DNA of 60,421 nt, the filler included, from Stramenopiles sp. TOSAG23-2 (taxonomy: Eukaryota), in the NCBI GenBank assembly GCA_900128395.1. It is 5 parts of 5 records of this genome, joined end to end, with 100 filler letters (N's around TTAATTAATTAA, not from the genome) between each part and the next. Parts side by side here need not be neighbours in the genome. Positions count along the whole stretch, not along the records: positions 36,418 to 48,377 come from LT649886.1; 4 more parts are not named here. One strand, written 5' to 3'. The notes beneath the pieces were generated by a model. It worked only from the letters and a program-made list of their open reading frames with translations. It searched no databases and was not told where the DNA came from. Positions 1 through 51,492 of the stretch are shown here, piece after piece (position 1 is the stretch's first letter; each line of letters opens with the position of its first letter). The position numbers and the translations under genes are program-made.

Positions 1-444
1 TTTGATAGGTTGAAATCGCCATTATTAAATTTTTCAACTTTTTTCATTTTTCGCGGCAAAGATTCAAACCAAATGTAGTTTAATGAATCGAGTACTACAT
101 TCCATCGACTAGTTTATATCGACAAATACATGAGATAACAATCTAACTAGTATAAATAATAATTAAAATACTCGATACATTTTGAAAAAACAAACAATTT
201 CAATCAAACTATATATATGACATAGATACATACATATATAATGTGCAAAGCGAGGATAGATCAATATAGATCAATAAAGAAAAAAACATATTTATCATAT
301 ATATTCAATTATTATACGTGTCTTTGTACGTGTGTTTGTGTGTGGTGAATTATTTGTAAGGATCCAAACTTTATTAATATTAAACAAATTATATTTAAAA
401 AAAAAATTAAATCATTTTCAAAAAAATAATTATTAAAAAAAATT

Positions 445-2187: not shown

Positions 2188-2612
2188 AGGAAGTACATTT
2201 TTAATGAGTTATATGTGACGACAAGAGGAGCTGCAGAAGGGCAGAGGATTTGAAGAGAGATGAGAGATTCTTTTTTTCGTGGTGTAGTTAGAACACATAA
2301 TAATATAAAAAGCATTTATATGTTGTGGTTAGTATTTTATTTTTTATTTTATTAAATATAAACAAATTTAACTCCAGAGTATTAGTGTTAATAATTAGAG
2401 CATTAAAAACTGAAGGTACTACATTAAAAAAGAATTAAAAAAACCTCACCAAACACCAAAACACCAAAATATACAACAAGAGACTCACTACTCACTACTA
2501 TCATCTCATCCATCTGACCATCTAATCATATCTCTCTAATCATTAATCTCTCTCTCCTCAGTCTCTCTCGCTCTCTCCTCTCTCCTCTCTCTCTCTTTCA
2601 CAAAAAAAAATC

Positions 2613-5600: not shown

Positions 5601-5965
5601 ATATTTTGATAAGTGATCTATATATCATATATTATTAATCTATTTATTGTATACTTACTGTTGCACAATAAAAACGTGAACCGGATACATCAGTCAATAC
5701 AAACCAAAAAAAGGTTGGTTTATTGATGGATATATTATTATTTTTCATACTGTTATTATTGTTATTTGACATATATGTTATATCAACATTATCAGGAAAA
5801 GCAAAAGATGCAACTTGATCTGGACGTATAGCATCTTTTGTTTTTTTTTTAATTTCTTTTTCAATTAAATGTGAATATTGTTTTTCAATCATTTGTTTTG
5901 TTGGAAATTGATCTAATACTTTTGGTTTGAATTGTATACCATTTGGTTGCGTTGAATTTTCAATT
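2613..5965 (-). CDS. DENN-domain Rab GEF-like protein with IQ motifs (mirror copy, 5'-truncated at the palindrome centre)
   Basis: Mirror of 6100..9452 with identical translation. Confidence 0.85.
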
Positions 5966-6099
5966 CTGTGTTGGTGTGTGTGTGTGTAAGGATATTGTTA
6001 GGTAATGGATTATTTTGTATCATTATATATATATATATATAATGATACAAAATAATCCATTACCTAACAATATCCTTACACACACACACACCAACACAG

Positions 6100-9000: not shown

Positions 9001-9452
9001 AAAATCAACAACAACAACAACGAGGTGGTAGAAGAGGTGAAGAAGAGGAAGTGGAGGGAAATAATAACAATAACAACAATAATATGGAAGCAAAAACACG
9101 TATGCATAATCAAAATAAATTTAAACAATTTATTTTTAAACGTAAACCAGGTTATGAAAAACATGATCGTGATCATGTCTATGAACGTTTGAAATTAAAA
9201 GTACCAAAAGAAACACGCGAACGATATTTTAATATGTTTGGTTTAGATGGTGGAAAACGACGGAAACATCAATTAGCAGAACGTTTATTTATGAATTTAA
9301 ATGAATGTGATTTATCCAGCCAAGTCATGTTAAGTACAGTTGAACAAGATGATATTGGTGTTGATTGGGTATTAAATAAAAAATTACAACGTATTAATAA
9401 GAATATTTATGATACATTGAAAGGTACATTGAAAATGTTAGGTGGGCAGTGA
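6100..9452 (+). CDS. DENN-domain protein (uDENN-cDENN-dDENN) + IQ motifs + C-terminal DUF3490-like region; partial, join(<6100..6406,6528..9452)
   Basis: Acceptor CAG at 6097-6099 precedes FKPKVLDQFP (uDENN-like). Intron GTAAGT 6407..CAG 6527. Then GLCVVSKYPF, VPLPPRG, LLFPFYWAGVYIPVLP, DAPVPYFVG (cDENN), AFLRFM...TQLW (dDENN), and IQ-like IQTNWGRMKQR and RQAIFRGYLIRK. No start exon is present. Confidence 0.85.
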
Positions 9453-9877
9453 GATTTTTTTTTGTGAAAGAGAGAGAGAGGAGAGAGGAGAGAGCGAGAG
9501 AGACTGAGGAGAGAGAGATTAATGATTAGAGAGATATGATTAGATGGTCAGATGGATGAGATGATAGTAGTGAGTAGTGAGTCTCTTGTTGTATATTTTG
9601 GTGTTTTGGTGTTTGGTGAGGTTTTTTTAATTCTTTTTTAATGTAGTACCTTCAGTTTTTAATGCTCTAATTATTAACACTAATACTCTGGAGTTAAATT
9701 TGTTTATATTTAATAAAATAAAAAATAAAATACTAACCACAACATATAAATGCTTTTTATATTATTATGTGTTCTAACTACACCACGAAAAAAAGAATCT
9801 CTCATCTCTCTTCAAATCCTCTGCCCTTCTGCAGCTCCTCTTGTCGTCACATATAACTCATTAAAAATGTACTTCCT

Positions 9878-11620
9878 TTACCAATCCCCATTCACTGCAG
9901 CTTGTTTCTCTGCCGCTTCACGAAAATCTTTTTTAATATCTGCATATAATGGTGCTAAAAATGAATGTTCAAAATATTCCATATATGGTTTTAAACTAGT
10001 TTTATCCACATCAGAAATTTTCATACGTTTATTGCTACTATTACTTGTATCACCATCATCACCATTGATTGTATTCTTATGTAATGAAGAAGAAGATGAA
10101 TCTAATTCATCAGCTAATGATGCAACAGTTGGTGTTGTATGTGGATCCCATTCATCTACTTTAGTTGGATCAATTGGTACACAAACACGTCCTGTTTTTG
10201 GATGTACACACCATGGTGATTTCAATAAATGGTTTCTGTGCGTACTAACATTTACATCTAAACGTGGATAAACACTGTGCATGTTAAAATAAGAAAAATT
10301 TTGTTAGAACATATAAATGTACACAACGCAGTGATGGAACAGAAAAGTTCAACGATGACGACTCTAGATAGATAGATAAATAAATAGTACTTACTACATA
10401 AATATAATGCCATAATGCGCCGTTCTTAAATTACGTAAAGAATCACTAATTAAACGTCCTTTTCCTACTTTTTGTTGTTCTTTGTCACAATACAGTTGTA
10501 ATGTTTTTTTCAATTGTTCCCATCGTTGCCCTGCAGTTAAAGATTTATTTGAACGTTTTTCCCATTCTACTTTTAATGAGGATGCAATATCTTGTTGTGG
10601 TATATGGGATAAAATTTCATCGAAACCATTTGAATTACCACTTTCCAATAAACCTTGTCCAATTTTACCAGTACTTTCATCATTACCTTCACATACAAAT
10701 TTCACAAATTGTTCTTCCATGTATGGCAAGGAGCGTTCCAAGGATGGATGCAATGGGTATGTCAATGGTACACGGCTTGCACTACGTTCATTACCAGTCA
10801 CAACCGTTAAATAGTTGACAATTGCAGCACGGCTTTTATCATCTAATGTTCTTGCAGATTGATCGCATACCCAACAATGCACACCACGTCTACCACTAAA
10901 TATCCATAATAAATGTTTAAAATTGAAATCTTCACGTAATGCTTTATCGACTACTTTCACTGCCGTGGACATGAAATACCAACAATCTTTACCCATACCA
11001 CGTGATATATCTGCACCTTCTGCACCAACATCATCGTAATCGGTTAAATCGATATCAAATACCAATTCACGTTCTAATGGTTTGAATATATTAGAAGGTA
11101 TCATATCATGTTTGGATGGTTCATGGGAATAAACAGCACCAATATCAATTTTACGTGGTTGTTGTCGCATGATTTTTTTACGCATTTCCTCTGCATTTTT
11201 GAAATTTAAATAACGAATATAAACTTCTTCCCCACTTACATCCAATGTAAAGGATATCTCACGATGAAAAAAATATTCTGGTTGTCCCATTGTATCTTTC
11301 ATACCATATGTATTACCATATGATAACCAACGATACATTTCATTGTATGGAAATAGACTGTGATGTTTTTGTGTGTGTTTTTTTTTTGATTTGTGTTTGA
11401 TTATTTAATTTGTTAGTTTGATTGATTAATAATGGTTTTGTATGTATGGAATAGAATGAATAAATTGTAGAACTTACCGTGTATAATAAACATTTAATAA
11501 TTCTGCACTAAATTCTTGTGTACGTACTGTTTTAGGTACACTAGTTTCATCTGCCATATTCACATCTTCATCTTCGTTTTGTTGTTTTCCACCAGGTGAT
11601 GGTGCATTTACTAATTCCAT
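9878..11620 (-). CDS. PRIM1: DNA primase small subunit (mirror copy of 445..2187)
   Basis: Reverse-complement copy within the palindrome. Confidence 0.9.
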
Positions 11621-12064
11621 AATTTTTTTTAATAATTATTTTTTTGAAAATGATTTAATTTTTTTTTTAAATATAATTTGTTTAATATTAATAAAGTTTG
11701 GATCCTTACAAATAATTCACCACACACAAACACACGTACAAAGACACGTATAATAATTGAATATATATGATAAATATGTTTTTTTCTTTATTGATCTATA
11801 TTGATCTATCCTCGCTTTGCACATTATATATGTATGTATCTATGTCATATATATAGTTTGATTGAAATTGTTTGTTTTTTCAAAATGTATCGAGTATTTT
11901 AATTATTATTTATACTAGTTAGATTGTTATCTCATGTATTTGTCGATATAAACTAGTCGATGGAATGTAGTACTCGATTCATTAAACTACATTTGGTTTG
12001 AATCTTTGCCGCGAAAAATGAAAAAAGTTGAAAAATTTAATAATGGCGATTTCAACCTATCAAA

Positions 12065-12164
12065 NNNNNNNNNNNNNNNNNNNNNNNNNNNNNNNNNNNN
12101 NNNNNNNNTTAATTAATTAANNNNNNNNNNNNNNNNNNNNNNNNNNNNNNNNNNNNNNNNNNNN
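12065..12164. other. Artificial contig-joining spacer (N44-TTAATTAATTAA-N44)
   Basis: Six-frame stop linker flanked by Ns; identical at four positions. Confidence 0.98.
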
Positions 12165-24199: not shown

Positions 24200-24299
24200 N
24201 NNNNNNNNNNNNNNNNNNNNNNNNNNNNNNNNNNNNNNNNNNNTTAATTAATTAANNNNNNNNNNNNNNNNNNNNNNNNNNNNNNNNNNNNNNNNNNNN
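24200..24299. other. Artificial contig-joining spacer
   Basis: N44-TTAATTAATTAA-N44. Confidence 0.98.
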
Positions 24300-36317: not shown

Positions 36318-36417
36318 NNNNNNNNNNNNNNNNNNNNNNNNNNNNNNNNNNNNNNNNNNNNTTAATTAATTAANNNNNNNNNNNNNNNNNNNNNNNNNNN
36401 NNNNNNNNNNNNNNNNN
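36318..36417. other. Artificial contig-joining spacer
   Basis: N44-TTAATTAATTAA-N44. Confidence 0.98.
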
Positions 36418-36496
36418 TATTATTCTTGCGATTGAGTATTGAGCATATTACTTTAACACGAGAAGTGTAAAAATATTATAACTTAGATTTTAACCA
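36418..36496. repeat. ~80-bp dispersed repeat, copy A (opposite orientation to copies B-D)
   Basis: tattattcttgcgattgagtattgagcatattact...aacttagattttaacca is the reverse complement of 44148-44228 and 51143-51224. Confidence 0.9.
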
Positions 36497-36640
36497 ATAT
36501 TATCTAGATAGTCTTTAAAATATTTTATTTAATTAGCTTAATGCATAATTTATTTTAGTCTTTAAAATATATTATATTTTTAAAAATGCACACATTTTTT
36601 TTTACGAACACACACACAAATCTCCTTCCCAAATTTTAAA

Positions 36641-39019
36641 TCACACCCAAGATGCTTTAAAAAAATGTTCATCCGCCCAATATCTTCTACGTCGTTTATG
36701 TGGGATAAAAGTATGTGTTTTTTCTTGAGTGAAAAAATCTTTCCATTTTCGTGAATCTACACAACATCTACTGCATATACTACGTTTTTCATGATTAAAT
36801 GCTTTACAGAAATTACATTGCCATGAATGATCAGGAAATTTATAATCGTGTTTTTTATTGATGTATGCAGGTAATTTTTTACCAATTGATGGTGGATCAA
36901 TTGAAGGTGGTGGTGCAAAATTATCTAATAATCTAATTGTCTTCAAATTTTGAGCGTTTGCCATCGTATTTATCGCCATCAGCTCATCTGCCCCACGCTT
37001 TTTACGAGGCCGTCCAACAGGATTTTTCTTATTTGTAACTAGATTTCCACCTACAGGATTTTTACGAGGCCGTCCAACAGGATTTTTCTTCTTCTTTTCG
37101 CCATGTTTTCCCCCTTTTATTTCACCTTTGTCATTGTTATTATTATAAATACTTCCAGTATTACCATAAGAAGCATTATCCATACTAACTTTAGAAAGTT
37201 GAATCGAGTTTTCTAAATCATAAATTTCTTCAACAACTCCATCTTCATGATATACAACAGTATGAATATTATCACGCGGTCGAAAGTATCCAACACGTGC
37301 TTTACTCCATCTTTTTTCATATGGCAACCAAATCTCAACATCTTTTCCCGTCAATTTGGATGATCTTTTTTTATGTGTATGTTTTTTACAAAACGCAGCT
37401 AATTGAATTTTCTCTGAATTTTGACCACTTAAACGTTCTATACACATGTAAAATCCTTCTTTTTTTCCACAACTTGGATGGAATTTAAATTTACATGAAG
37501 GGATACTGCAATGAACAACTGCGCCATCTTTTTGACCACACACATCACAAAATTCTTCAAATAAATTGTTAGGTATTCTATCCAAAGATCCTTTTCTATG
37601 ATTATTTTTATCAATGGAACAAATAGGCTCCATTTTCTTATTATCTAAAAATCCAGCCTCGGGAATCCATAAAGCACAAAATGAATGTGCCCAGCGTCCA
37701 TCACTAGTCCGTCGCATTGCACCAAAATTTCCTCCATTGGGGCAAAAAATACACTTTGGGGGTTCCTGAAAGCCAGCATTGCATGTGTCACAATACCATT
37801 TATCAGGAGGTATTTTTGGAATATTATAACAGGATTGGTGAACACCAATATTACAACGATCACAAAAGATTATTTGATCAATAGCATTAGCATCGTCAAA
37901 ACATATTGTACATAAATCTGGTGAAAATTTTCCAAAATCTTCAATTGGTGCTTGTATTTTTTGTCGTGGCTTTGCACGTATAGGTTTAGGATCTTGTTTT
38001 TTCAATTTATAACTGCATGTTTTTTCATGTTCCGCTACCACATTGTATGTTCCAATAAAACCACAACGATAATCACATCCATATGTTTTTGGCTCATTAC
38101 GGCGGGGGGGCTCTTTATCATCATTTTGTCTAATTTCATCAGTTGTTGTTGATGTCAAATCCACAACAATATCATTGTTATCTAATAATGGTATTATATT
38201 ATTATTATTATCGACAGTGTTATCGTTATTATTTATATTATTATTAGTAGTAGTATGATTGTTGTTGTTGTTGTTGCTGTTATTCATTTGACAAGCATTA
38301 CAATGCCATATTAAAGGTGGATCAAGTTCAGATACAAAACCAACACAACAACCATGAAACCAATTTTGACACGTATCACATTGAACAGAGAAATGAAATC
38401 CATCCATAAATGGTGCGCCATTTCTTAAATAACACATATCTGTACACTGAACACCGTCATCTTCATAATAAATTTCATCTAAATTTATAAAATGGTCATT
38501 CGTATCATGTTGGTCGCGATTCACAACAGTTTCTTCACGTAAGAAATTCATACTTTCATCCAATACTCGATTGTTATTTAAATATTTTGTACAATTATCA
38601 TGACTATTAAATACTTGAAGCTTTGTGAAACGAGCTTTACATAGTGGACATGTATTTGTTACATCACTCCATGCTTTAATGCAAGAAATATGATATATAT
38701 GCTTACAATTATCCAACACGGCAAGTCCATCGTCATTTAATTTGTTTGTATCATCTTGCATATCATTAAGACATATTGGGCATGGTTCTTTTTCATCTAT
38801 TTCATATGGTGTTGGTTGTTTATTATTATTAATATCCTCACTATTATCAATAACCTTAGTGTTATTATTATCAATATCCTCAGTGTTATTATTATCAATA
38901 TCCTCAGTGTTATTATTATCAATATCCTTATTGTTATTATTATCAATATCCTCAGTGTTATTATTATCAATATCCTTAGTGTTATTATTATTCTGTTTTA
39001 TAACTCCTTGTTCCATCAT
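36641..39019 (-). CDS. Multi-zinc-finger chromatin protein: RING + PHD + PZP (PHD-Zn knuckle-ePHD) + Tudor-like + 2 AT-hooks + RanBP2-type finger
   Basis: Likely ATG at 39019. CPIC..CKHIYHISC..CPLC; QCDTCQNWFHGCC..WHCNAC; CTIC..FCDRCNIGVHQSCY..WYCDTC; CIFCP..GAMRRT..WAHSFCALWIPE; GRPRK x2; WQCNFCKAFN..CSRC. Confidence 0.88.
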   Translation of the reverse strand: MMEQGVIKQNNNNTKDIDNNNTEDIDNNNNKDIDNNNTEDIDNNNTEDIDNNNTKVIDNSEDINNNKQPTPYEIDEKEPCPICLNDMQDDTNKLNDDGLAVLDNCKHIYHISCIKAWSDVTNTCPLCKARFTKLQVFNSHDNCTKYLNNNRVLDESMNFLREETVVNRDQHDTNDHFINLDEIYYEDDGVQCTDMCYLRNGAPFMDGFHFSVQCDTCQNWFHGCCVGFVSELDPPLIWHCNACQMNNSNNNNNNHTTTNNNINNNDNTVDNNNNIIPLLDNNDIVVDLTSTTTDEIRQNDDKEPPRRNEPKTYGCDYRCGFIGTYNVVAEHEKTCSYKLKKQDPKPIRAKPRQKIQAPIEDFGKFSPDLCTICFDDANAIDQIIFCDRCNIGVHQSCYNIPKIPPDKWYCDTCNAGFQEPPKCIFCPNGGNFGAMRRTSDGRWAHSFCALWIPEAGFLDNKKMEPICSIDKNNHRKGSLDRIPNNLFEEFCDVCGQKDGAVVHCSIPSCKFKFHPSCGKKEGFYMCIERLSGQNSEKIQLAAFCKKHTHKKRSSKLTGKDVEIWLPYEKRWSKARVGYFRPRDNIHTVVYHEDGVVEEIYDLENSIQLSKVSMDNASYGNTGSIYNNNNDKGEIKGGKHGEKKKKNPVGRPRKNPVGGNLVTNKKNPVGRPRKKRGADELMAINTMANAQNLKTIRLLDNFAPPPSIDPPSIGKKLPAYINKKHDYKFPDHSWQCNFCKAFNHEKRSICSRCCVDSRKWKDFFTQEKTHTFIPHKRRRRYWADEHFFKASWV
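38842..38991. repeat. Coding 24-bp tandem repeat (DIDNNNTE-type) in the N-terminus of the RING/PHD gene
   Basis: Repeated ttatcaatatcctcagtgttatta units, about 6 copies. Confidence 0.85.
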
Positions 39020-40001
39020 CCTATTATTATAATTTATAATATATTTATCTTGTATATATATATATATACACTTTATTATGATTATGAAACGGCAGAAGAA
39101 AAAATCAACAAATAACAAGAGATGTAAAATAACAAGCACTCAAAAAAACAATTTCAAACAAGTAGTATTAAATGAAACATGTATGTTGAAACGGGAGAGT
39201 TGATCATTCATTCATCTACTAAAGTATTATATATATAATTTATTATGTATCTTTTTTTTTCGCAAATAATAATTAAAATCGCGCGCAGCACCGCAATCAT
39301 CCAGGGCACCAGGCCCAGCAGGCCCAGCAGGCCAGCAGGCAATCATCATCCCAGTAAATTCGGCACGGGTAATGGTATGTCCATCGTAACCCCAAAAAAA
39401 TATTCACAGTTTTGGGATTTTTTCACGCTAGGCTGACACAGCACCGTCTTAAGATTTTCATTTTGCGGGAAAAATTCCTCCACGAATTTTTATCGCCAAC
39501 CCTACCCTCCAACCACGCCCCTTAAACACCTCTCGAGACCCCAAATCATTTTCGGATAACGCCTGCTGTGTGGTGCTAATGACTTGCCGTCTAAGATTTT
39601 TGGGAACGTCAATTATATAAGGATGCTATTTCGATTGGGCGGGAATGGAACACGAAAATGAAAGCTTTGGGAATCGTTACTGCCTACTTCAATATAGAAA
39701 AAATACAAACGGCGAATGGAATTCACCATTAATAACAGCCTGTTAATGAGTAGAACCAGAAAAACGCATTTTTAGAGAGCGTTAAATGATATTTCTATAG
39801 TACAAAACAATCGCACGGGGATGGCGAATAAGTAAAAAATATACGGGGAATAAAATAAAACCAATACAAATGTATAAACAACGATTGATGTTATATTATT
39901 TACATACACAAACGCACAACAAATACAAAGACCGAACACAAACTGTATTATTAACCAAACCACCAAGCCAACGAACAAACACCTGTTTAACAAATAGAAA
40001 C

Positions 40002-43000
40002 ATGATTATCTTTTGCCCAAAGCACAACCATAAGCCTTTCCCACCACCGGAAGACACCACACATACAGACGAAGTCTGGATCGGATCACGATCCAGTCGT
40101 ATCTCTACTATTGTAGCAAACATCGATGGAACCATCTATTTATACTTTCATGAAGCACCGCAAGCATTGAACAAAGTGCTACGCGATGTGTACACATCCA
40201 AACTGTCTGCTCGTTTATCCGAACTGGAGAAGGACCAAGAAAAACATGCTATCAAACTGATTCGGGCGGCCAATGCTACGATCAAGGATCCGTTGATCCC
40301 AAGAAGTGTATCGGTATATGAATTGAAACGAGTGCAAGAAACCTTCGCCAAGTACGATGCCTTATACAAATCAAAACAAACAGTCACCTCCTATTCCAAA
40401 ACGCAGGTGAAGAACGCATTAAAGGCGTACGCAGAAGAGAAAACCAAGCAAGAGGTTGGTGCACAACATACCTTGGAGAAAACCAAAAAGCAATTGTTGG
40501 TAAAATTGAAACAATACAAGGGCTTATCGACTGCAAAAAACGATGATACCTTGTGGAAACGCGAAGGCATCTATCACATTGATGAACAAGAGCGTTGCAA
40601 CCTTCTTAAATCTGCGTTTGATTTACCGCAAGAAAACAAACCAAAAAAGCCTAAGCTAGAATCGTGGATGCGTAAAATGGTGAAACATTGCGCAGACTAT
40701 TACGAATCCCATTATTTGAAGGCCGCGGATAAAGCAGTTGTGCGAATCGCAGAAACATGCGCATCCATTGTTCGCGGTTCGAAAAAGTCAATCACCGCCG
40801 AAGGAATTCTACGCAGTGCTGGATACGACAGCAACGGGAACGTCAAACTAATTAAAAAATACGGTTTAACCAGAGCGGAGGGCTCTGGTACATTGAAAAA
40901 TAATGTAGCTGCGCTACGAAAATGTTTCTACATCATTAATATGGCTGCTTTGAAGCAAAGCCTGTCCATCAAAAGCCATCCCATCCGTGTATTAGACGGA
41001 ATCCATCAAAGTCTCAAAGGACTGTCGGTAGTCGGCAACGGAAAAGAAGAAATCGATTTGGGTATATCCAACAAGGACAAAAAAGAATTTGCTCAGCAGA
41101 TGGTCCGTTGGGTGAAAGACCAACATGTTATCAACGATTTTGAAACCTTGCAACAAGCATTACTAGCACGTGGCATCACCTTTGACCAAGAAAAAGAACG
41201 CAAAACACAGCGAACCAACAATGTCGACAAAATAAAAAGAGACATGTTGACGCTAACATTCTGGTATCCATTGTACCCACTGGCAAAGATGCGAAACCGT
41301 ATCGCTGGTAAAAACATTGGTTCAAGCATCGATGCCTTGATACAAACCTTGGTAACCAACACCAACAGTGAGATGTATACCAAGTTTTATTGTTGCACCA
41401 TCGCACAGGCCAAAATTGTTGCTGACACAAAAAAAGAAAGCAAAAGCAACAAAAATCCAATGGTGTATGGCCTTCCAGATGTCTCGAAATTGGAGCTCTT
41501 GTTTGCATTTACCTCGCATGTACAAACACATGCACCCGCGATGGCATTTGCACGACTCGCCGTCACCTTATGGCAATCCTACATGTTCAAAGAAACCAGC
41601 GTACGGGCTGCTACATGTATGGTGATACGTCTTCAATCGTTGGCCGATTACAACCAGTGGGCAAATCTATGTAAACATTATACAGAGCCCAACCTAGGCA
41701 TTGATTGCATTGTGTATGGCAACGACAAAGTGCAAGTGAAAAAGCTGGAATCAAAAGATATCTTGCAACGTATGCCGCCGGTCAGTCAAGTGTACGGAGA
41801 TGCCAACAAAGATTTTATCAAAACCTACTTTCGCAAAGAACACCCGGTCTTCTTTCAATTCTTTGACATGGCCAAAAAAGCTTATGAGATATTGACTGGC
41901 AACGATACCATCACAGCAACTTCCACGGAGCGCAGAGAATACATCTCTGGTTACCAACAAGGCGGTGGGTACAAACAAATCAAATTGAATGTCTTTCCAC
42001 ACACGGATACGCCCACCTATGCACAAGCTTCGCCATGGTACATGTACGCAGCATCCGAAGTGGGTCAGCATTCAACCTTTGAGCTATCCCCCATCGAGCG
42101 AGGCAATCTCTTCAAGAAGGTGCCAGTCAAAGGTGGAAACAAGACAAAACAACGGTTCAAGTCCATGTTAACCCGCACGGAAAAAGTGGTTAGCGGGTCG
42201 GTGAAAACCACCAAACTGGCTTACTGTACGGCCCCGCCAGTAGCGATGCAAACATTGACCACACGTCATGTCAACGATTCTAGCTTTGGTTCTCACCTGC
42301 AAAAGAAACATGCAACTGTATTGCGTCAAAGCATGAGTGGGTCCAGCGTAACCATGACTCGCAGCGAATGGTGCATTGACAACGATGTAGAGATTACTTT
42401 TGATGTTCAATCCTTGATTGGAACACCAAGAGTATTTGGTGGGACATGGACCCAGGCACATTTGGATTCCTTGCGAATCACCACGGCGTACCAATCGCAC
42501 CCAGAAAGTTTGGGTCGCTACATGTCTGGTCAAGATGCATTGGCCTGTGAAAAATTTGACGCCGAATTCAATATTTTATCGCATGAAAAAACCCTTGCAT
42601 ACAACACAATGCGCGTCGCCAACCAAGAAAAAAGCAATGGCCATACCAAGCATATCATGGAAAAACATTATGATATTTACACCGACGACGAGTTGAAAAA
42701 ATGCTCTCGTTTTGGCAACGACAAAGCCACCATCATTGATAGAGGGTCAGCGTTACCTTATTGGGTTCCCTCCAGGAGCATAGAGGGGTTGGAATTGGTA
42801 TACACGGGTGAACGCACTTCCATGCCCGCGATTACTCCAATTGAAGAGAAATGGGGACACGTGAACACATTGACCCTTCAACAAGAGTGTGCCATCAAAA
42901 CCATGATAAAGCGATTTGTGTGTGAGATTGTGGCTCGTAAAGACCACGGAATCAAAAACTGGCGTGCGGATTTAAAAGACGGTCATGGTGTCCATACTGC

Positions 43001-43208
43001 CTTGGCCAACCATTTCAATGACGTGGAGCATATTCAAGAGAAAATGCTACAAGAATGGATTCGCAAACACCCAAAAGAGTTTCAACAACGATTTGGAATT
43101 GCGGAACGTATTGTGCATTGGTGGCGTACATGTTGCTGCTTCCACCGAAAACGAAAACGAACAAGCAGCAAGTTTACACCGTACAAAAAACAAAAACAAC
43201 CCGAGTAA
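40002..43208 (+). CDS. Large orphan protein with a putative divergent tyrosine recombinase catalytic domain
   Basis: Likely ATG at 40002 (MIIFCPKH). ETSVR (R codon 41604), HLDSLR (R codon 42474), NGHTKHIMEKHY (H 42642, Y 42669; H-to-Y spacing of 9). C-terminal basic NLS-like RKRKR. Confidence 0.55.
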   Translation: MIIFCPKHNHKPFPPPEDTTHTDEVWIGSRSSRISTIVANIDGTIYLYFHEAPQALNKVLRDVYTSKLSARLSELEKDQEKHAIKLIRAANATIKDPLIPRSVSVYELKRVQETFAKYDALYKSKQTVTSYSKTQVKNALKAYAEEKTKQEVGAQHTLEKTKKQLLVKLKQYKGLSTAKNDDTLWKREGIYHIDEQERCNLLKSAFDLPQENKPKKPKLESWMRKMVKHCADYYESHYLKAADKAVVRIAETCASIVRGSKKSITAEGILRSAGYDSNGNVKLIKKYGLTRAEGSGTLKNNVAALRKCFYIINMAALKQSLSIKSHPIRVLDGIHQSLKGLSVVGNGKEEIDLGISNKDKKEFAQQMVRWVKDQHVINDFETLQQALLARGITFDQEKERKTQRTNNVDKIKRDMLTLTFWYPLYPLAKMRNRIAGKNIGSSIDALIQTLVTNTNSEMYTKFYCCTIAQAKIVADTKKESKSNKNPMVYGLPDVSKLELLFAFTSHVQTHAPAMAFARLAVTLWQSYMFKETSVRAATCMVIRLQSLADYNQWANLCKHYTEPNLGIDCIVYGNDKVQVKKLESKDILQRMPPVSQVYGDANKDFIKTYFRKEHPVFFQFFDMAKKAYEILTGNDTITATSTERREYISGYQQGGGYKQIKLNVFPHTDTPTYAQASPWYMYAASEVGQHSTFELSPIERGNLFKKVPVKGGNKTKQRFKSMLTRTEKVVSGSVKTTKLAYCTAPPVAMQTLTTRHVNDSSFGSHLQKKHATVLRQSMSGSSVTMTRSEWCIDNDVEITFDVQSLIGTPRVFGGTWTQAHLDSLRITTAYQSHPESLGRYMSGQDALACEKFDAEFNILSHEKTLAYNTMRVANQEKSNGHTKHIMEKHYDIYTDDELKKCSRFGNDKATIIDRGSALPYWVPSRSIEGLELVYTGERTSMPAITPIEEKWGHVNTLTLQQECAIKTMIKRFVCEIVARKDHGIKNWRADLKDGHGVHTALANHFNDVEHIQEKMLQEWIRKHPKEFQQRFGIAERIVHWWRTCCCFHRKRKRTSSKFTPYKKQKQPE

Positions 43209-43369
43209 AAAAGCTTCCTATAAATGTATACCGGTATTACGTAATGAATGTATTACATGCTATTGTACACGGGCAGTATATTCCTACTGCTCCTATTTAT
43301 TTCCATCTGACATGCCGCCTACCATTTAACAACACTATCATCCTTATCAAAAACCTACAATTTAAAGGG

Positions 43370-43555
43370 ATGCAATCACGATTATTGTTTCAACAACTTG
43401 AAACCGATTCCCACGTGATTGTTGAACACAACCTTAATAAAGTATACCTAGCCACTTCCAATTTTACAAAAAGCGCGACATTTATCCTACTGGACGCAAA
43501 ACGACTCACTCCAGAAGAGTTACCAACGCTAGCGTATCCCCCCTTACGGACATAA
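43370..43555 (+). CDS. Small hypothetical ORF in the element (MQSRLLFQQLE...)
   Basis: ATG-initiated 61-aa 3' part of ORF 43055..43555; element-like composition. Confidence 0.3.
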   Translation: MQSRLLFQQLETDSHVIVEHNLNKVYLATSNFTKSATFILLDAKRLTPEELPTLAYPPLRT

Positions 43556-43585
43556 GCGCTTTCTTCTTGGCGAGCAGAACTGTAC

Positions 43586-43825
43586 CTATAACATTCTGCT
43601 CACAAAAAACAAAACAGGTTCACTATAGAGTTGTAAAACGAAGTGAACCGCTGATCGAAAGGTAGGGTCGGCAATATCAAACCGTATCCAATGATGATAA
43701 CATCTTTCTTGGTTAATATATATTGCCCTCGTTTCGTTCACTTGTGGGGACAACGCATTATATGCAAAATGTTCCTTGGCACGGTTCACGCTTGTATTTG
43801 TGTAACATGGTTGTTGTTGGTCCAA
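43586..43825 (-). CDS. Small hypothetical ORF, possibly 5'-truncated by the adjacent AT-rich cassette
   Basis: 79-aa ORF with a TTG start that abuts the (TTTA)n tract. Confidence 0.3.
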   Translation of the reverse strand: MDQQQPCYTNTSVNRAKEHFAYNALSPQVNETRAIYINQERCYHHWIRFDIADPTFRSAVHFVLQLYSEPVLFFVSRML

Positions 43826-43905
43826 TGTATGTATTTATTTTTAATTTTATTTATTTATTTATTTTATTTATTTATTTTTATATTTCAAGATTCAAGTTTT
43901 GGTTA

Positions 43906-44088
43906 TTAGAGTGTTTGCGCGTCTAATGGTGGATGCCTGCTAGAAATCCTAAATTATTTTTAGAAAATATTAGCAGGGCGATACCACAAGACGCGCAAAG
44001 GGTCTAAGACAATTTGGATTGCTAAAGTGTCTTAGAGCATTTGCTCGTCTATTAGCAGGTGATTACCACAAGACGAGCAAAGTGTCTA
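43906..44088. repeat. Hairpin repeat cluster: full unit 43906-44007 plus an internally deleted unit 44032-44088
   Basis: Stems tttgcgcgtct/agacgcgcaaa, tggt/acca, cctgcta/tagcagg, ctaaa/tttag; second unit tttgctcgtct/agacgagcaaa. Confidence 0.85.
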
Positions 44089-44147
44089 TGTTTGGCAATC
44101 AAAAATGTATTCGAGTATATGGAAAGCATTTTAAGATAAAAATAAAT

Positions 44148-44228
44148 GATGGTTAAAATCTAAGTTATAATAATTTTACTTCCCGTGCTAAGTAATATGC
44201 TCAATACTCAATCGCAAGAATAATATTC
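44148..44228. mobile_element. 81-bp SINE-like dispersed repeat, copy B, with a 16-bp target-site duplication
   Basis: Flanked by identical taagataaaaataaat at 44132-44147 and 44229-44244. Confidence 0.75.
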
Positions 44229-44661
44229 TAAGATAAAAATAAATAAAATATTTATTGAAGTGCATCATTAATAAAATTGCTGATCCAAATCAGCGACATG
44301 GTGGTGGACAACCGGTGACAAACATGACATTGGAAATTTTACATGAGGATTAAAGTGAATTTTAAAATAGCAGTGTGATAGATATAAATATTTCCTTGAA
44401 ACAAATTATTAAAAAGATGTTAGTGATTTTTTATAAAATAACAGCTGTCCGGACCCACCATATCATAATATAAAAGTTCTTTTACTCATATATTTTATAA
44501 TTTTATTCATATGATATAAATGATGTATATGATATATTTTATTCATATGATATATATAACATATTACATACGCATAAAACATAAGCAAAAGATTTGATAT
44601 TTGAATTATTAGTACTCGTAAATTATATAATAATAATACGATATATGAATGAAATTTTCGA

Positions 44662-45900
44662 TTATTGCGCAGTTAATGCAACCATTGTTGATAGAACCAA
44701 AATGGCAATATTCGAAGACGAAGTTAATATGCCACTGCTTGTGTCTAATTCATCATCTGTGGTAGTATTACCAGTTGCACTAGTAGTTGCTGCCAAAGTT
44801 GTCGTTGCTGCCAAAGTTGTCGTTACTGCCGAAGTTGTCGTTGGACTTGCTGTTGTTGTTGGGGCTACATAGCATATTCCTTTTCCATCCGTACAGCAAT
44901 TTGACTCCAAAACTGACATCACTTGTTTTTGACCTGTAGTTAGACCTGCACAAGTTATACTAGTCCAATTGACGCTTGTTAAATCAGGATTAGTGCTAAC
45001 TTGTACATCGCAGGCAGCAGCGCCATTCGGAGATGTAAATATTGCCGCACCATTGTAATTACTTGGATTAAGACATGTCTTGGAATAATCAAAGCACAGA
45101 TCTCTTCCATCCGTACAGCAATTTGACTTAAAATAAGTTGAAATCGCGTTTTTTTCAGCTATAGTTAGACCTGCACAAGTTATACTGTTCCAACTGACAT
45201 TCGCTAATTGAGGCGAATTACTAGCGTGTACATCACAGGAAGCAGTGCCACCCGGAGATGTAAATATTGCTGAACCGTTGTAACTACTTGGATTAATACA
45301 CATCTTGGAATAATCTACCCCATGGCACAAATCTTTTCCATCCATGCAACAACCTGCACCAATATTTCTGTTTGAAAGGTCTTGCTTTTGCGAATAACTA
45401 AGGTCTGCGCAGGTTAATGTTGCAAAATTTAGTCCAGAAAACATATGTGGAATCGCGCCCAGGCAAGCCACATTATTCGACGAACCCACAAGAATACTAG
45501 AACCATTAAATTGAGATGGATCTTTACAAATTCGAGAAGCATTTTCGTAGCAGATACTTTTCCCATTGCAGCAGCCAGTTTGAAATGGTTCTTCAAGCAA
45601 TTTAAATCTTTGGTCTTGTGTAAAACTATTGGAAGAACATGAGGTAACGCCTGTCCAATTTTTATAACTTGGTGATGTAGTATTTTCATAATCACTAAAC
45701 ACTTTCACAACACCATCAATACTTACTCCAGATAAATATTGGTCACACGTAACAGTATTTCCATATATATTTATGGTTGCAGACCCTGAATAATCACTTG
45801 GATTTAAGCAACTTTTTGATCTGTCTTGAGCAACGGAAGTTGACATTGTTAAAGTGATAACAACCAGTGCTAATATTGTTGTAGTTCGTAAAAAATACAT
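44662..45900 (-). CDS. Cys-rich repeat cell-surface protein (signal peptide, four ~74-aa repeats, Thr-rich stalk, GPI-like C-terminus)
   Basis: N-terminal TTTILALVVITLTMSTSVA; repeats C.NPS.Y.G.A...CD...TC..L...QK...CC.DG..(I/L)C; 222-bp nucleotide period (ttccatccgtacagcaatttgact at 44883 and 45105); hydrophobic tail IAILVLSTMVALTAQ. Confidence 0.85.
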   Translation of the reverse strand: MYFLRTTTILALVVITLTMSTSVAQDRSKSCLNPSDYSGSATINIYGNTVTCDQYLSGVSIDGVVKVFSDYENTTSPSYKNWTGVTSCSSNSFTQDQRFKLLEEPFQTGCCNGKSICYENASRICKDPSQFNGSSILVGSSNNVACLGAIPHMFSGLNFATLTCADLSYSQKQDLSNRNIGAGCCMDGKDLCHGVDYSKMCINPSSYNGSAIFTSPGGTASCDVHASNSPQLANVSWNSITCAGLTIAEKNAISTYFKSNCCTDGRDLCFDYSKTCLNPSNYNGAAIFTSPNGAAACDVQVSTNPDLTSVNWTSITCAGLTTGQKQVMSVLESNCCTDGKGICYVAPTTTASPTTTSAVTTTLAATTTLAATTSATGNTTTDDELDTSSGILTSSSNIAILVLSTMVALTAQ

Positions 45901-46175
45901 GTTTTATAAATAGGTTAACAATTCGAAAAGGAAAAAATATATAGAATATTTGTTTTTGTTTTTTGTTGTGATATTAGAATGCAATTGGTAAAACCGGAAT
46001 GGTTTAATACTTAATTATTTTTATTTGGCACTTTACATTTGATGATAAAAGGTAAAATCCGCTCAAAAATGGATGGACATTCAACGGGATTTTGAGATTA
46101 GTGGTATACCAATGCTATTTTTAGGAGGGTGCCAGAGAATAATAATTAACAGATAGGATCATTTTATTGGATGTG

Positions 46176-46262
46176 TTAGAGTGGTTGCTCGTCTAATGAT
46201 AGATGCCTACTAGAAATCCTAATTTTTTTTTAGAAAATGTTAGCAGGGTGATACCACAAGAC
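46176..46262. repeat. Direct-repeat partner of 43906-43992 (87 bp, 9 mismatches)
   Basis: Ungapped hand alignment at offset 2270. Confidence 0.9.
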
Positions 46263-46314
46263 ACAAAAATATATATTTTTTTACAGATAAAGTTACAGTA
46301 GGATTATGGTGCAA

Positions 46315-46830
46315 TTATTCACTCTCTCTCTCTCTTTCTCTTGCTGCAAATGTTTCTCGATGGGCCCTTGCTTGCAATCCAGATTTTTTTTCTGACCACG
46401 ATGATTGACCCGCGCATGTAACATTGTCTGCATCACGCAGCTGTGCCAATTCCAATTGCCTGTTACGGATGCCAATTTCATGTACTAAATAGGACATACC
46501 AAAGCCGTTGTATGTACGCAATATATCATTCAGAAATTGTAATTCGCGTTCTATCACATCCTGCTTCTTGCGCGCTTCACGTATTTTTGTATAATGGTAA
46601 TACTGATGAAATATTTCAAACGCATTTACCCGATAATCTGATGCCAGCAGTGCTTCTTTATCGCTAACCAATTTTGTTGTAAGCGTTAGAAACCGTTCAA
46701 ACGGCATGTCGGTCTTCAATACCAGAGCCATTACCTCATACAGGTTGAGTGTCTTGGATGTTAGCAGTTGTATCACACGTTGTTGTTTAAAGATATCTTT
46801 TTCCCCGAGAAATTGAATCTTAGACGACAT
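46315..46830 (-). CDS. Hypothetical protein (element ORF)
   Basis: 171-aa ATG-initiated ORF; TATAAAAG 18 nt upstream. Confidence 0.6.
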   Translation of the reverse strand: MSSKIQFLGEKDIFKQQRVIQLLTSKTLNLYEVMALVLKTDMPFERFLTLTTKLVSDKEALLASDYRVNAFEIFHQYYHYTKIREARKKQDVIERELQFLNDILRTYNGFGMSYLVHEIGIRNRQLELAQLRDADNVTCAGQSSWSEKKSGLQARAHRETFAARERERESE

Positions 46831-46882
46831 TTGATAAACATAACATTTCTTTTATAGGGTCAAACGGTTGTAAAAGTTTTTA

Positions 46883-47790
46883 TCACATGCGTATGGTAGG
46901 AATTTTTGGCTCAATGAAGTCTATTAACCGCTTGAATAGCTGCTTTAGCGCGAGAAAATTCTTCACCGCGTCCCGGATTTCCTTCTGGGTAACATGGAAC
47001 CCCTTTTGTACCCTACCTAATTTGACAAACAGAAATTCAAGGCCTTCAAGTTTCAAGACTGGATTAATACCTTTTAGAATAGCCTCACGGTAGAGGCGTT
47101 CTATCCACTGCTTGGTGTTTTCTTTGGAGAAACCCCGGGATTTCAGCATAAACGATGGAAGAAACATGTCTTGCTCGGCTTCTTTATCTTCTTCGTTTTC
47201 ATCGTCCGTTGTGACTTCGCGATATTCTTTCGGCTGTGCAAGCACTTCCAGCGGCTGCTGGGTATCCAACGTTATTTGCCGCCGCTCATGCCATTGCTGT
47301 TCAAGCTGTTTGTAATCCGGACCAATGGCATAACCTCGGTGAAGCTCTAGATTCCCTGGGGTATTCTCCTTGGGAATTAAAGTTGGTTTTAATCTGCGTT
47401 TTTCATTTGGCTGGGCAGAGGGCACCCGTAAATGCTGCGGTGTCTCGTTCAACCTAGCGCCCTCTTCCACCTCCTGAACCTGTCTCACAAATGCCGGGGT
47501 GTTCTTCACGTCTCGTTTCTTATACTGCCGCGGGGTGGGAGAAGGGTCCGNNNNNNNNNNNNNNNNNNNNNNNNNNNNNNNNNNNNNNNNNNNNNNNNNN
47601 NNNNNNNNNNNNNNNNGTTGGGAGAAGGGTCCGACGGTGACATCGCCATAAACTGTTGGGTTAAACTGGACGCTTGATTTTTGGCGATGGATACATCCGA
47701 AAGCTCATTGGTGAGCGTTGCCAATTCGTCTTGGCACGTCTCCAACAAGATAGCTAATTTTCTCAAACGTTTATGAATTGTATCTTCCAT
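46883..47790 (-). CDS. Hypothetical protein (element ORF) spanning the N gap at 47551-47616
   Basis: MEDTIHKR...SDPSPN[gap]DPSPTPRQYKKRDVKNTP joins ORFs 47506..47790 and 46883..47509; gggagaagggtccg occurs on both sides of the gap. Confidence 0.6.
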
Positions 47791-47919
47791 GGTTTATCCA
47801 TTTTCACTAAGCTTATATAGTGCCTAGCGCCCAGAGCGACTTTTCGATTGACTTGAAGTATCAACATTGCTGGCATAAAATCGCCGGAGCACCTATTTAA
47901 ATAACAAGATGACCTACCA

Positions 47920-48270
47920 ATGAAATCAAAACACAAGAAACTCAAACAGAAACGAGCGGAACTGGCTATCTTAATTACCCGCAAGGCGTTTAAAACATAC
48001 AACGCCTATGTAACCGCCTCCTGCATTGTACAAAATCTTCAACCCATGCTGGTTGCCAACCGCGAGAAGTTTATCGCTGCCTTCACCAAGAGGGTATCTG
48101 CGCCGTTATACCACCTCACCGACGATGCGGAACAATCCAAACGCCATGTGATATCTTTTCTGAGGCGGTTGGCTCACTACTATGGGAATTTCTTAGCATC
48201 CAAGCGAAAATCTATCGTTGTCAATGGCAAGACTATCTCTCAATATTCCTACGCGCTGGTGAAAGTGTGA
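47920..48270 (+). CDS. Small basic hypothetical protein (element ORF), possibly DNA-binding
   Basis: 116 aa, Lys/Arg-rich; TATTTAAA 18 nt upstream; divergent from the 47790 ORF. Confidence 0.6.
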   Translation: MKSKHKKLKQKRAELAILITRKAFKTYNAYVTASCIVQNLQPMLVANREKFIAAFTKRVSAPLYHLTDDAEQSKRHVISFLRRLAHYYGNFLASKRKSIVVNGKTISQYSYALVKV

Positions 48271-48377
48271 AGTGTTCACTTGCGGAAAAACGGAAAAAAA
48301 TGCAAGGTTTCACATGCTGGAGATTCTGGCGATTTCACAAGTGCCAACTGCCGGCAGGTGGCAGATGACTTTTGCCC

Positions 48378-48477
48378 NNNNNNNNNNNNNNNNNNNNNNN
48401 NNNNNNNNNNNNNNNNNNNNNTTAATTAATTAANNNNNNNNNNNNNNNNNNNNNNNNNNNNNNNNNNNNNNNNNNNN
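48378..48477. other. Artificial contig-joining spacer
   Basis: N44-TTAATTAATTAA-N44. Confidence 0.98.
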
Positions 48478-48868: not shown

Positions 48869-50189
48869 CTAAGCTAATCCAACAGCTGATGGAAGAATCA
48901 CTCGCCAAACTAATGCACCTACCAAACCAAGAGTAAATATAAAACCTACAACAATTTTTATTTTACCGATACCACCATCATCAACAGGTTCCTCTTTCTT
49001 TCCAATTATTTCTGCTTTTTTTTGTGCAACTGCTTTACTAACTGGACCCATACCTCTTTTCTTAGAGTTACAAACCAACCTTTCATCACGTTTTAGGACA
49101 GTTGGTAACAGCATTTTAACAAATTTTTTCTTCGATGTAATTGTCGTAGTTCCTTGACATCTAATATTATCTCCATCAACACCAATAACAAATCCACCTT
49201 CAAGTTTTGCTGAGTCTCCTAATGGTTCTATTACCAACTTTGAAAATTTACTATGATCTTCCATTATATCTAACCAGCCATTCTGTGGAGCGTAGCGTAT
49301 GAATGAGTGTAATAAATATGTCAGAGATGATATCTTTTTTTTCAAGTTTAGGGGAATATAAGAAGTAACTTACCGTCAACTCAAATGGTTCTTCCATTGC
49401 TTTAACAAATCTAGGCATTGATCCAAAATTTTTTGTTTGAACCCATGATATCCATGAATCGTTACTAGGTTCACCATTGATCGGTGAACGATTTGTTATA
49501 CATATCCACATATATTTACCTTCAATCACACGTTGTGTCCCATCCTCTTGGTATATTGTTATCTCGCCATGAAAATTATTGCCTTTTGAATGTGGAAACA
49601 AGACAGCATATGCTGCAAATAATTTTAAACAAGCAGCGGAGCCGGGGAAATGAGTACGTCCATAGTCTTGTCCTTCAATTGCACGTGGTGCTAATCCTAA
49701 ATGAATTGCCTCAACGCTCAACATATCTGCTACAAGACCTTTTGAATCAGATACAGAACATACCGTAATCTCTTTTGTTTCTCCACTTTTGATCAACTCA
49801 GCAACACGTTTTGGGCGTTCAATTCCTTGTGATATAGCGAAAAAATTCATCCCTCCGCAACTTACGAAACCCATTGGTATTTTATCCGAGTTTTTGCTTT
49901 GATTCACCCCTTGTGCAGTTTCACACAAAGTGCCATCGCCTCCAGCGCCTACTACAATCCATCCACTATCACAGTATTCTTTCGCTAATTCAACAGCATG
50001 TCCTCTTCTCTCTGTGTATTGTATTTTGAGCTCTATATCTGGATTAATTTCTTTCATTGCATCTTTAAATGATTGACAAGGAAACGTTAATTGGCCAGTA
50101 CCAATAACGGAGTTTGGCCCTTCTACGGCTTTCAAACTTCTGCCACCACCACTTATTGGATTTAATATAATACAGACTTTCTTTGGCAT
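48869..50189 (-). CDS. Diacylglycerol/sphingosine kinase-family lipid kinase with a C-terminal TM anchor; complement(join(48869..49282,49374..50189))
   Basis: ILNPISGGG, TERRGHA, GAGGDGTLCE, GGMNFFA, GVDGD; phase-0 GTAAGT..CAG intron at 49283-49373. Confidence 0.85.
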
Positions 50190-50964: not shown

Positions 50965-51142
50965 TTCACAAAAAAGGAGATGGAGTATTTAATACCACGT
51001 ACGAATGATGTATCGGTTAGATAGATATGTGTGTGTGTGTGTGTGTGTATGTGCATGTGTAAATTAAGCTGCCAGCTGGATATTTTATAATAATATGATA
51101 TATCGATATGCATATGTATTTTTTTATTTAATTTAATAATAT

Positions 51143-51224
51143 ATGGTTAAAATCTAAAGTTATAATAATTTTACACTTCTCGTGGTAAAGTAATATGCTC
51201 AATACTCAATCGCAAGAATAATAT
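51143..51224. repeat. ~80-bp dispersed repeat, copy C
   Basis: atggttaaaatctaaagttataataatttt...gtaatatgctcaatactcaatcgcaagaataatat. Confidence 0.9.
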
Positions 51225-51492
51225 GCTATCCTACTATAATAAAGCTCTCCTGACGTCGTCGCAAGCTCTCATGCGCCACCGCAAGCTAATACTCCATAAG
51301 CACAAGTAGGTTTAATTTAATATATATACGAAGTAATATATAAATGTGTGCATATCATAATATTTTACGACTATAAAATACATGAATAATAAAAATCATT
51401 TTATTAATATATCAATATCGCATATATATATATACAAGCTTGTATCATATGTGAAAAATATTCGTACATCATGTTCGAAGCATAATATAAAA

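Follow-up and report, generated by a model that had tools for sequence, protein, structure and literature searches.

In a 60,421-base stretch of DNA from Stramenopiles sp. TOSAG23-2 (assembly GCA_900128395.1), hereafter the window, a host chromatin gene gives way to a GC-richer run of tightly packed orphan open reading frames (ORFs), the first of them of giant size, and the locus raises the question of what this run is and what its leading gene does. A preliminary description, made from the sequence alone, had read it as the left end of a large, virus-like integrating element that is led by a tyrosine-recombinase-like gene and has acquired a host-type surface-protein gene. By comparing copies, we find a dispersed, multi-copy element that begins at position 39342 and continues at least to the end of its contig (36418-48377), and we think it reasonably probable that the giant gene encodes a protein that mobilises it.

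The left end of the element and its copies

Scanning metagenome contigs with the giant ORF recovered five loci (L001 to L005), two of which share the exact left end of the element. Stretches of L003 (9656-9966, 94.4% identical) and L005 (2689-3369, 89.7% identical) match the window in blastn searches, both matches start at window position 39342, and the sequences upstream of this boundary are unrelated among the three loci in the alignment. The window sequence immediately outside the boundary, 39255-39341, was absent from the other copies, as L001-L005 and the rest of the window match it only in AT-rich words of 12-16 nucleotides (nt). One sharp end is therefore found at three loci with unrelated flanks, the general mark of a dispersed element. 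The flanks of L003 and L005 are AT-rich and carry other eukaryotic genes, namely a VHS/GAT gene and a carboxylesterase in L003 and a 776-amino-acid (aa) N-rich ORF in L005. At all three loci, the element and a minus-strand host gene are arranged divergently, head-to-head, with 192-359 nt between the start codon of the gene and the element end upstream of it; in the window, 322 nt separate the element end from the start codon of the host flank gene, which faces the giant ORF. Judging from these three cases, insertion may prefer promoter regions. The gaps between the element end and the host gene occupy 39020-39341 in the window, 9464-9655 in L003, and 2330-2688 in L005.

Based on these alignments, 39342 is the sharp left end of a dispersed, integrated, multi-copy element that is both real and mobile. 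The earlier view that this is the left end of a larger integrating element was thus borne out, while the extent given for it (39430-48377) needs adjustment, since the element starts at 39342 and 48377 is the end of the contig, not of the element.

Several copies have kept this terminus and lost the body of the giant ORF. L005 lacks 40028-43780, L003 retains only 39888-40498, a contig joint in run X3 passes directly from 39981 to 43688, and P0006 joins 88 residues of the ORF to unrelated sequence. Autonomous DNA transposons accompanied by internally deleted, non-autonomous copies show such a pattern. It recalls Ac/Ds and P elements, class II transposons with internally deleted non-autonomous copies, in that the terminus persists in these four cases together with the first codons of the giant ORF, while the body of that ORF is gone. 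Such transposons, however, seldom carry several unrelated genes, as the element does here, and no DDE, hAT or P-type domain was detected in it.

The boundary coincides with a shift in base composition. In 1-kb windows, the GC content of 0.27-0.34 between 36 and 39 kb rises to 0.43-0.47 between 40 and 43 kb, falls to 0.31 between 44 and 45 kb, and recovers to 0.36-0.43 between 45 and 48 kb. In finer steps, the climb from ~0.25-0.30 to 0.41-0.52 starts in the 200-bp window 39201-39400, and a drop to 0.20-0.33 at 43800-44800 is followed by a rise that lasts until 48377. GC content at third codon positions (GC3) separates the element from its host in the same way, with 0.36-0.56 in seven element ORFs or ORF pieces (six genes) versus 0.18-0.27 in five host ORFs. 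The host flank gene encodes a PHD/RING zinc-finger protein (Pfam zf-HC5HC2H_2, E = 7.2e-20; PHD, 4.5e-11; zf-RING_2, 1.5e-9), and both GC and codon usage agree with the proposed switch from a host chromatin gene to a GC-richer, dense block of orphan ORFs. The intronless nature noted for these ORFs has little discriminating value, since the host contigs also contain long uninterrupted ORFs.

The giant first gene and its proposed role

The giant ORF is the first gene of the element and reads inward from the left end. The preliminary description had identified the correct frame but, reading from Met45, had given it ~1068 aa; the full ORF has 1112 aa, and the distant relatives align from its residue 1. 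The ratio of nonsynonymous to synonymous substitutions (dN/dS) was 0.17 against L001 (358 codons), 0.07 against L002 (229), 0.23 against L004 (179), and 0.17 against L003 (203), values by which the ORF is to be regarded as a real gene under purifying selection. Among 1.84 billion representative proteins, 19 matched it at E ≤ 0.001. The great majority (17 of 19) were short fragments of 73-227 aa from environmental assemblies, 45-97% identical, while two, P0016 and P0019 (1136 and 1137 aa), were full length at 23-24% identity; P0016 is encoded on a contig of 9.8 kb and P0019 on one of 22 kb. The window protein and these two align end to end, best in a core at residues ~440-720 and in a second block at ~860-900. 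The window ORF, L001, P0016, and P0019 also have basic C-terminal tails ending in PE, which we read as putative nuclear localisation signals.

No known family could be assigned to this protein. Searches of Pfam (E ≤ 10), PHROG, and NCBIfam gave no match to the giant ORF, and Pfam was likewise negative for P0016 and P0019; two profile searches of the PDB with the family returned one irrelevant match (a urease, E = 1.5) and no match, respectively; and a protein atlas offered nothing usable for the whole protein or for residues 430-740. A search for homologues of near-equal length scored none among 5522 candidates, and one with alignment A1 scored none among 8000. The prokaryote genome collection held nothing similar to P0016 or the giant ORF, and tblastn against phage and plasmid collections found no match to the latter. 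A 24-row alignment that included the fragments (A7) was misaligned and was not used.

The element is widely distributed. Part of the region 39200-43300 is held by 20 of the 24 public runs listed, which come from 12 studies and are mostly marine or seawater metagenomes. Six of these runs are poly(A) or oligo-dT RNA libraries that hold 0.19-0.25 of the sequence words, and contigs from one RNA run, X15, cover 39816-40023, 40524-40770, and 41490-42046 in and around the giant ORF, part of the cassette gene described below, and 46447-47413, over the downstream gene o171. In X2 and X3, the element had about ten times the run depth of the host gene, a difference that we do not take as copy number. Full-text searching of the published literature, judged on listings and abstracts, found no description of the element.

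On balance, we favour, with moderate confidence, the interpretation that the giant first gene encodes the mobilisation protein of a mobile, multi-copy nuclear element, the left part of which extends from 39342 at least as far as 48377. The host is an AT-rich uncultured marine protist, and the contig end truncates the element. The best reading is a new family of cargo-carrying mobile elements with a captain-first layout. In such a scheme, the basic C-terminal tail would carry the giant protein to the nucleus, where the protein would act on the conserved terminus as the element's own mobilisation protein. Copies that lose the giant ORF by internal deletion would persist as non-autonomous derivatives, as in Ac/Ds or P elements, and an array of palindromic units downstream of the giant gene may serve as a rearrangement hot spot at which foreign DNA, here a host-type surface-protein gene, would be gained and lost.

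A number of observations weigh against this interpretation. The role of mobilising enzyme is suggested by the position and conservation of the giant ORF, and neither sequence, profile nor fold comparisons pointed to a catalytic family; the enzyme proper could be encoded past 48377. Neither the window nor L001-L005 contained an inverted copy of the terminus. The right end is located past 48377, and no target-site duplication or empty site was found; a joint that leaves out the entire element could not have shown up in the data, since the right end is outside the stretch. As to the possible chimeric junction that had been raised for 39300-39700, contig 4 of run X1 spans 38947-39432 with 0 mismatches and bridges it, but X1 may be the source data of the contig, in which case the bridging is not independent, and the independent support is therefore that of the two metagenome loci. 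The RNA-library contigs are suggestive of expression and no proof of transcription. Finally, the presumed cargo, an AT-rich cassette that interrupts the block, was described as an acquired surface-protein gene: a host-type gene does lie within the element in this assembly, the only one in which this placement was seen, and none of the independent contigs compared crosses the cassette borders. Both borders are repeats, the palindromic units seem to be present in more copies than the element, and a repeat-mediated mis-join of the cassette is conceivable in an assembly with at least one fold-back chimera (contig 1, see below).

Mobile elements that carry cargo are familiar from bacteria and, since Starships were discovered, from fungi as well; to our knowledge, they are almost undescribed in the protists that dominate the ocean. 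Here, an element family that is widespread and variable in gene content is led by a conserved protein for which no current database offers an explanation. If the giant protein mobilises the element, it would represent a new, tool-like family of recombinases or transposases and add a path by which genes flow in uncultured plankton; otherwise, the family would still be a useful marker of recurrent insertion into promoter regions. A more far-reaching version, which we put forward only tentatively and consider doubtful, is that the ~1,100-aa family formed by the window ORF, P0016, and P0019 is a new eukaryotic DNA-mobilising enzyme that founds a superfamily of cargo elements in marine protists, inserting head-to-head in promoters and using the hairpin array as a dedicated site for the gain and loss of cassettes.

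Alternative explanations of the locus

The explanation that ranks second, behind a cargo-carrying mobile element, is that the locus is the end of an endogenous DNA virus, virophage- or polinton-like or of another lineage, in which the giant ORF would be a viral protein and not a transposase; we hold it to be unlikely, though by no means far-fetched. A GC-shifted, dense run of orphan genes fits it, as does the presence of near-identical element copies in 12 marine studies. Related copies carry SET and AlkB-like genes, both of which are frequent in large DNA viruses. Moreover, the remnant in L005 abuts a 377-aa C-terminal fragment of a D5-type primase-helicase (4505-5638, minus strand; D5_N, E = 4.4e-9). 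Its relatives of ~900 aa are common on environmental contigs of 15-33 kb (181 proteins at E ≤ 1e-5). In IMG/VR, exact patterns found no close relative of the fragment, and a family alignment was used in their place. One complete 27-kb IMG/VR relative with that primase-helicase family, L026, is a virophage with a Sputnik major capsid protein (MCP; E = 1.1e-86), V18/19, and an A32-like ATPase. L026 also encodes a D12 methyltransferase and the small subunit of a ribonucleotide reductase. Virophage remnants seem to be present in the host lineage.

The element itself does not share these features. According to PMC10120064, endogenous polinton-like viruses (PLVs) and virophages are recognised by MCP together with pPolB or a primase-helicase and an rve or tyrosine-recombinase (YR) integrase. 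Like such loci, the element is a GC-shifted, multi-gene insertion in a protist, with one copy (L005) adjoining a virophage-type primase-helicase fragment; unlike them, it contains none of MCP, pPolB, primase-helicase, and integrase in the window. According to Pfam, no capsid, packaging ATPase, protease, pPolB or integrase occurs in the 9 kb of the element or in L001-L005, the region beyond 48377 being unseen, in agreement with the preliminary description, which had itself noted the lack of capsid, packaging ATPase, and pPolB. Its label "virus-like", by contrast, found no hallmark gene in the window to rest on, and the hints come from related copies alone (SET, AlkB-like, and the primase-helicase fragment). 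The profile of the giant ORF (at E ≤ 10) and the other ORFs of the window (at E ≤ 0.01) had no match among 4328 six-frame ORFs of 80 virophage- or PLV-like loci in IMG/VR, and comparing the giant ORF with the primase-helicase family by hhalign gave a probability of 0.1. Scans of IMG/VR with A1, P0016, P0019, a 28-nt word from the terminus, and o171 yielded no relatives (five of seven scans, those using the element's own genes or DNA or the two distant relatives, found nothing). Internally deleted copies that retain the terminus are, furthermore, more typical of transposons.

A second alternative retains a mobile element but takes the giant ORF to be a highly divergent tyrosine recombinase, so that a Starship- or Crypton-like element would move by site-specific recombination, which we judge improbable. 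According to PMC9156397, the Starship captain, a DUF3435 tyrosine recombinase, is encoded by the gene nearest the 5' end, in inward orientation, and the giant ORF likewise leads the element inward, 528 nt from its end, with variable cargo behind it. The resemblance to Starships, which inhabit Pezizomycotina fungi, extends to degraded copies without the first gene and to a composition unlike that of the host. The differences are that the giant ORF has no DUF3435 or Phage_integrase signal, that the host is a marine protist and not a fungus, and that DUF3723, FRE, PLP, and NLR genes were not seen in the at least 9 kb present here, the right end being outside the contig. Cryptons encode essentially one YR protein with an R-H-R-Y tetrad, according to PMC3212892. 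With Cryptons, which use a tyrosine recombinase and have no terminal inverted repeats but terminal direct repeats of 4-6 bp, the element shares the lack of a detectable inverted terminal repeat and a boundary that can be defined only by comparing copies; unlike them, it has no detectable YR and carries several further genes.

The sequence of the giant protein allows some room for this alternative. In the three full-length homologues, S577-x-R579, R689, Y717, and G-R-Y at 882-884 are invariant and lie in the best-conserved region, and by our own reading the spacing of S-x-R, R, and Y could mimic an R...R...Y pattern. This pattern is drawn from three sequences only, however; it lacks a conserved His of the R-H-R-Y tetrad, and the Y717 column moves once fragments are added. 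In none of the three homologues did Pfam detect Phage_integrase or DUF3435 at E ≤ 10, and the PDB gave no sequence match for the giant ORF. We also built a reference alignment of XerD, XerC, FimB, FimE, lambda Int, and Cre, in which R, K, H-x-x-R, and Y come out as invariant columns; against these six recombinases, hhalign gave a probability of 0.1 both with the whole protein (E = 0.56) and with the core (E = 0.4). AlphaFold2 models were too poor for a judgement of the fold, with a mean pLDDT (predicted local distance difference test) of 31.2 for the whole protein, modelled from three sequences, and of 42.5 for residues 430-740, modelled from seven, both unusable. The whole-protein model was set aside as meaningless, and the poor domain model gave a best E of 2.2 by Foldseek against the PDB (TM scores of 0.1-0.2; 0 of 120 matches at E ≤ 0.001), rows that were discarded. 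Pfam, PDB, hhalign, AlphaFold, and Foldseek hence gave no support to the label "tyrosine-recombinase-like", which is an absence of support and not a refutation.

That the locus is a rolling-circle element of the Helitron type, led by a giant ORF and carrying host genes that it captured, is very improbable. By convention, Helitrons start with TC after a host A, end in CTRR with a subterminal hairpin, and encode Rep (HUH) and a PIF1-type helicase. The boundary can be read as a host A followed by element TC in all three copies, although A|TC carries little information, and gene capture without an inverted repeat would fit. Yet Pfam detected no Helitron_like_N, PIF1 or helicase at E ≤ 10, no HUH-type motif is conserved, and a Helitron 3' end would fall outside the sequence. 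Least credible, and close to negligible, is an assembly artefact in which a chimera of amplified single-cell DNA joined the host gene to a GC-richer block: the window's own contig 1 folds back perfectly on itself, and X1 and X10 are very small runs (X1 contigs reach only 42107, and their absence beyond it carries no weight), but an X1 contig crosses 39342 free of mismatches, in two metagenome contigs this element end adjoins other DNA of host-like type, and a random chimera would not break three times at one base.

Gene content, palindromic array, and genomic setting

The features of the element and its left flank are collected in Table 1.

Table 1. Features along the contig, in window coordinates
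Feature	Position	Strand	Remarks
Host flank gene	36641-39019	-	792 aa; PHD, PHD-like zinc-finger, RING; GC3 0.19
Outside the shared left end	39255-39341	.	First ~25 nt AT-rich; G+C-rich from ~39280, with CCAGCAGGC-like repeats
Left terminal non-coding region	39342-39869	+	528 nt; starts ATCATCATCCCAG; TATA-like motif near 39613; kept in other copies
Giant orphan ORF	39870-43208	+	1112 aa; first gene, reads inward, 528 nt from end
s103	43247-43555	+	102 aa, conserved; no Pfam or PDB match
Palindromic units A (~100 nt) and B (short form)	43906-44088	.	Start of tandem hairpin-unit array
Cassette	44089-46160	-	AT-rich insert of ~2.1-2.3 kb between palindromic units
Cassette gene	44662-45900	-	412 aa; hydrophobic N- and C-terminus, 24 Cys in four repeats, Ser/Thr-rich stalk
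Palindromic unit C	46176-46269	.	Degraded right arm; direct repeat of A; equals unit 2 of L005
o171	46315-46830	-	171-aa orphan; 98% identity in L005; dN/dS 0.14
Orphan ORF	46883-47790	-	Broken by 66-N gap at 47551-47616; stop-to-stop frames
o116	47920-48270	+	116-aa orphan; GC3 0.56; last gene before 48377; no significant match

The conserved core of the element consists of the left terminus, the giant ORF, and s103. In the terminal region, we found no ORF of at least 80 aa and only weak internal repeats of 10-19 nt, and a bacterial promoter and terminator scan of the left end was uninformative. The s103 protein is 98% identical in L002 and 62% in L001 (tblastn), with a dN/dS of 0.19 against the latter, and L001 contains a tandem paralogue of it (34% identical over 53 aa, E = 3e-6). 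Behind this core, the gene content varies. In L001, the giant ORF and s103 are followed by a SET gene (E = 3.4e-5) and a 2OG-Fe(II)/AlkB-like gene (2.1e-7); L003 and L005 have in common a membrane-protein gene with leucine-rich repeats and Notch-LNR modules, 84% identical over 1565 nt and of element-like GC content; and the window has three more orphan ORFs past the palindromic array. For o171, Pfam, the PDB, and NCBIfam gave no match, and PHROG gave one weak match to a family of unknown function (E = 0.005). The broken ORF next to it is probably a single gene of ~275 codons on the minus strand (47790-46883), as an X3 contig that joins 47548 to 47645 with 13 other letters would keep it in one frame; the gap is flanked by a repeated 14-nt word, and the final 63 aa of the ORF match L005 at 100% identity. 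Sequence searches of the PDB with the five smaller ORFs found nothing below E = 0.3.

The array of ~100-nt imperfect palindromes that starts behind s103 also occurs in L002, L003, and L005. Folded as DNA, unit A reaches -26.2 kcal/mol (z = -6.6), a value equalled by none of 200 shuffles, and 89% of cells are paired across nine units compared to 38-45% when the units are slid against each other. Covariation among the units amounted to one compensatory pair, no better than chance (478 of 500 shuffles as high). In L003, a 240-nt near-perfect palindrome (87%; 10803-11042) directly follows the hairpin array; it is not present in the window or L005. Integron gene cassettes have hairpin-forming attC sites and an IntI-type recombinase, and the array resembles them in that a single gene lies between imperfectly palindromic ~100-nt units that fold as single strands and in that cassette-free variants exist. 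It differs in that no IntI-type recombinase was identified, covariation does not exceed chance, the setting is eukaryotic, the cassette brings its own flanking DNA, and the end motifs of the units are, by our reading, in the opposite order to those of attC core sites.

The AT-rich cassette of ~2.3 kb that had been said to interrupt the block does exist in this assembly, where it is enclosed by direct repeats of 94 nt (43906-43999 and 46176-46269) that are 87% identical and 2270 nt apart. It is absent from L005 and from three X3 joints, 43946>46230, 44037>46187, and 44088>46267. Its gene, with a GC3 of 0.25 that is within the host range, encodes a putative secreted or glycosylphosphatidylinositol-anchored surface protein, and an RNA-library contig lies on 44827-45134 within it. 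A copy of a host high-copy repeat (44141-44230) lies beside the gene. The cassette is plausibly captured host DNA, as far as composition and repeat content can tell.

The window as a whole is a chain of ~12-kb contigs and not a single molecule. The contigs are joined by linkers of N44, the 12 bases TTAATTAATTAA, and N44 (at 12065-12164, 24200-24299, 36318-36417, and 48378-48477) and fall in size from 12,064 through 12,035 and 12,018 to 11,960 nt; given these linkers, contigs adjacent in the window are not genome neighbours. Contig 1 (1-12064) is 100% identical to its own reverse complement, with a (TA)n run at the centre near 6032 and mirrored ORFs at 727-1671/10394-11338 and 2613-5114/6951-9452. 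It is a fold-back chimera of a kind known from amplified single-cell DNA and calls for caution with the assembly, which is why artefact explanations had to be weighed. The other contigs carry ordinary eukaryotic genes with long uninterrupted ORFs (a PAN2-like protein, a kinesin, a FAR/GPAT fusion, DENN, and a diacylglycerol-kinase-like protein). On the contig after that of the element, a diacylglycerol-kinase-like ORF (48869-50189, minus strand; DAGK_cat, E = 2.2e-16) overlaps the ORF that follows it, which has 131 aa and uses a different frame, an arrangement that could reflect a short intron, a frameshift or a sequencing error. Rfam and tRNA scans returned 0 matches, including none in Rfam for a dispersed repeat of ~85-170 nt, the high-copy repeat mentioned above, which is found at 36418-36503, 44141-44230, and 51135-51320 and at 13520-13690 of L003. 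This repeat lies between genes, close to gene 3' ends, and its summed contig depth in runs X1, X2, and X3 is 10^2-10^4 times that of its neighbours. Since L003 thereby carries a high-copy repeat of the window's host DNA, it comes from the same or a close organism.

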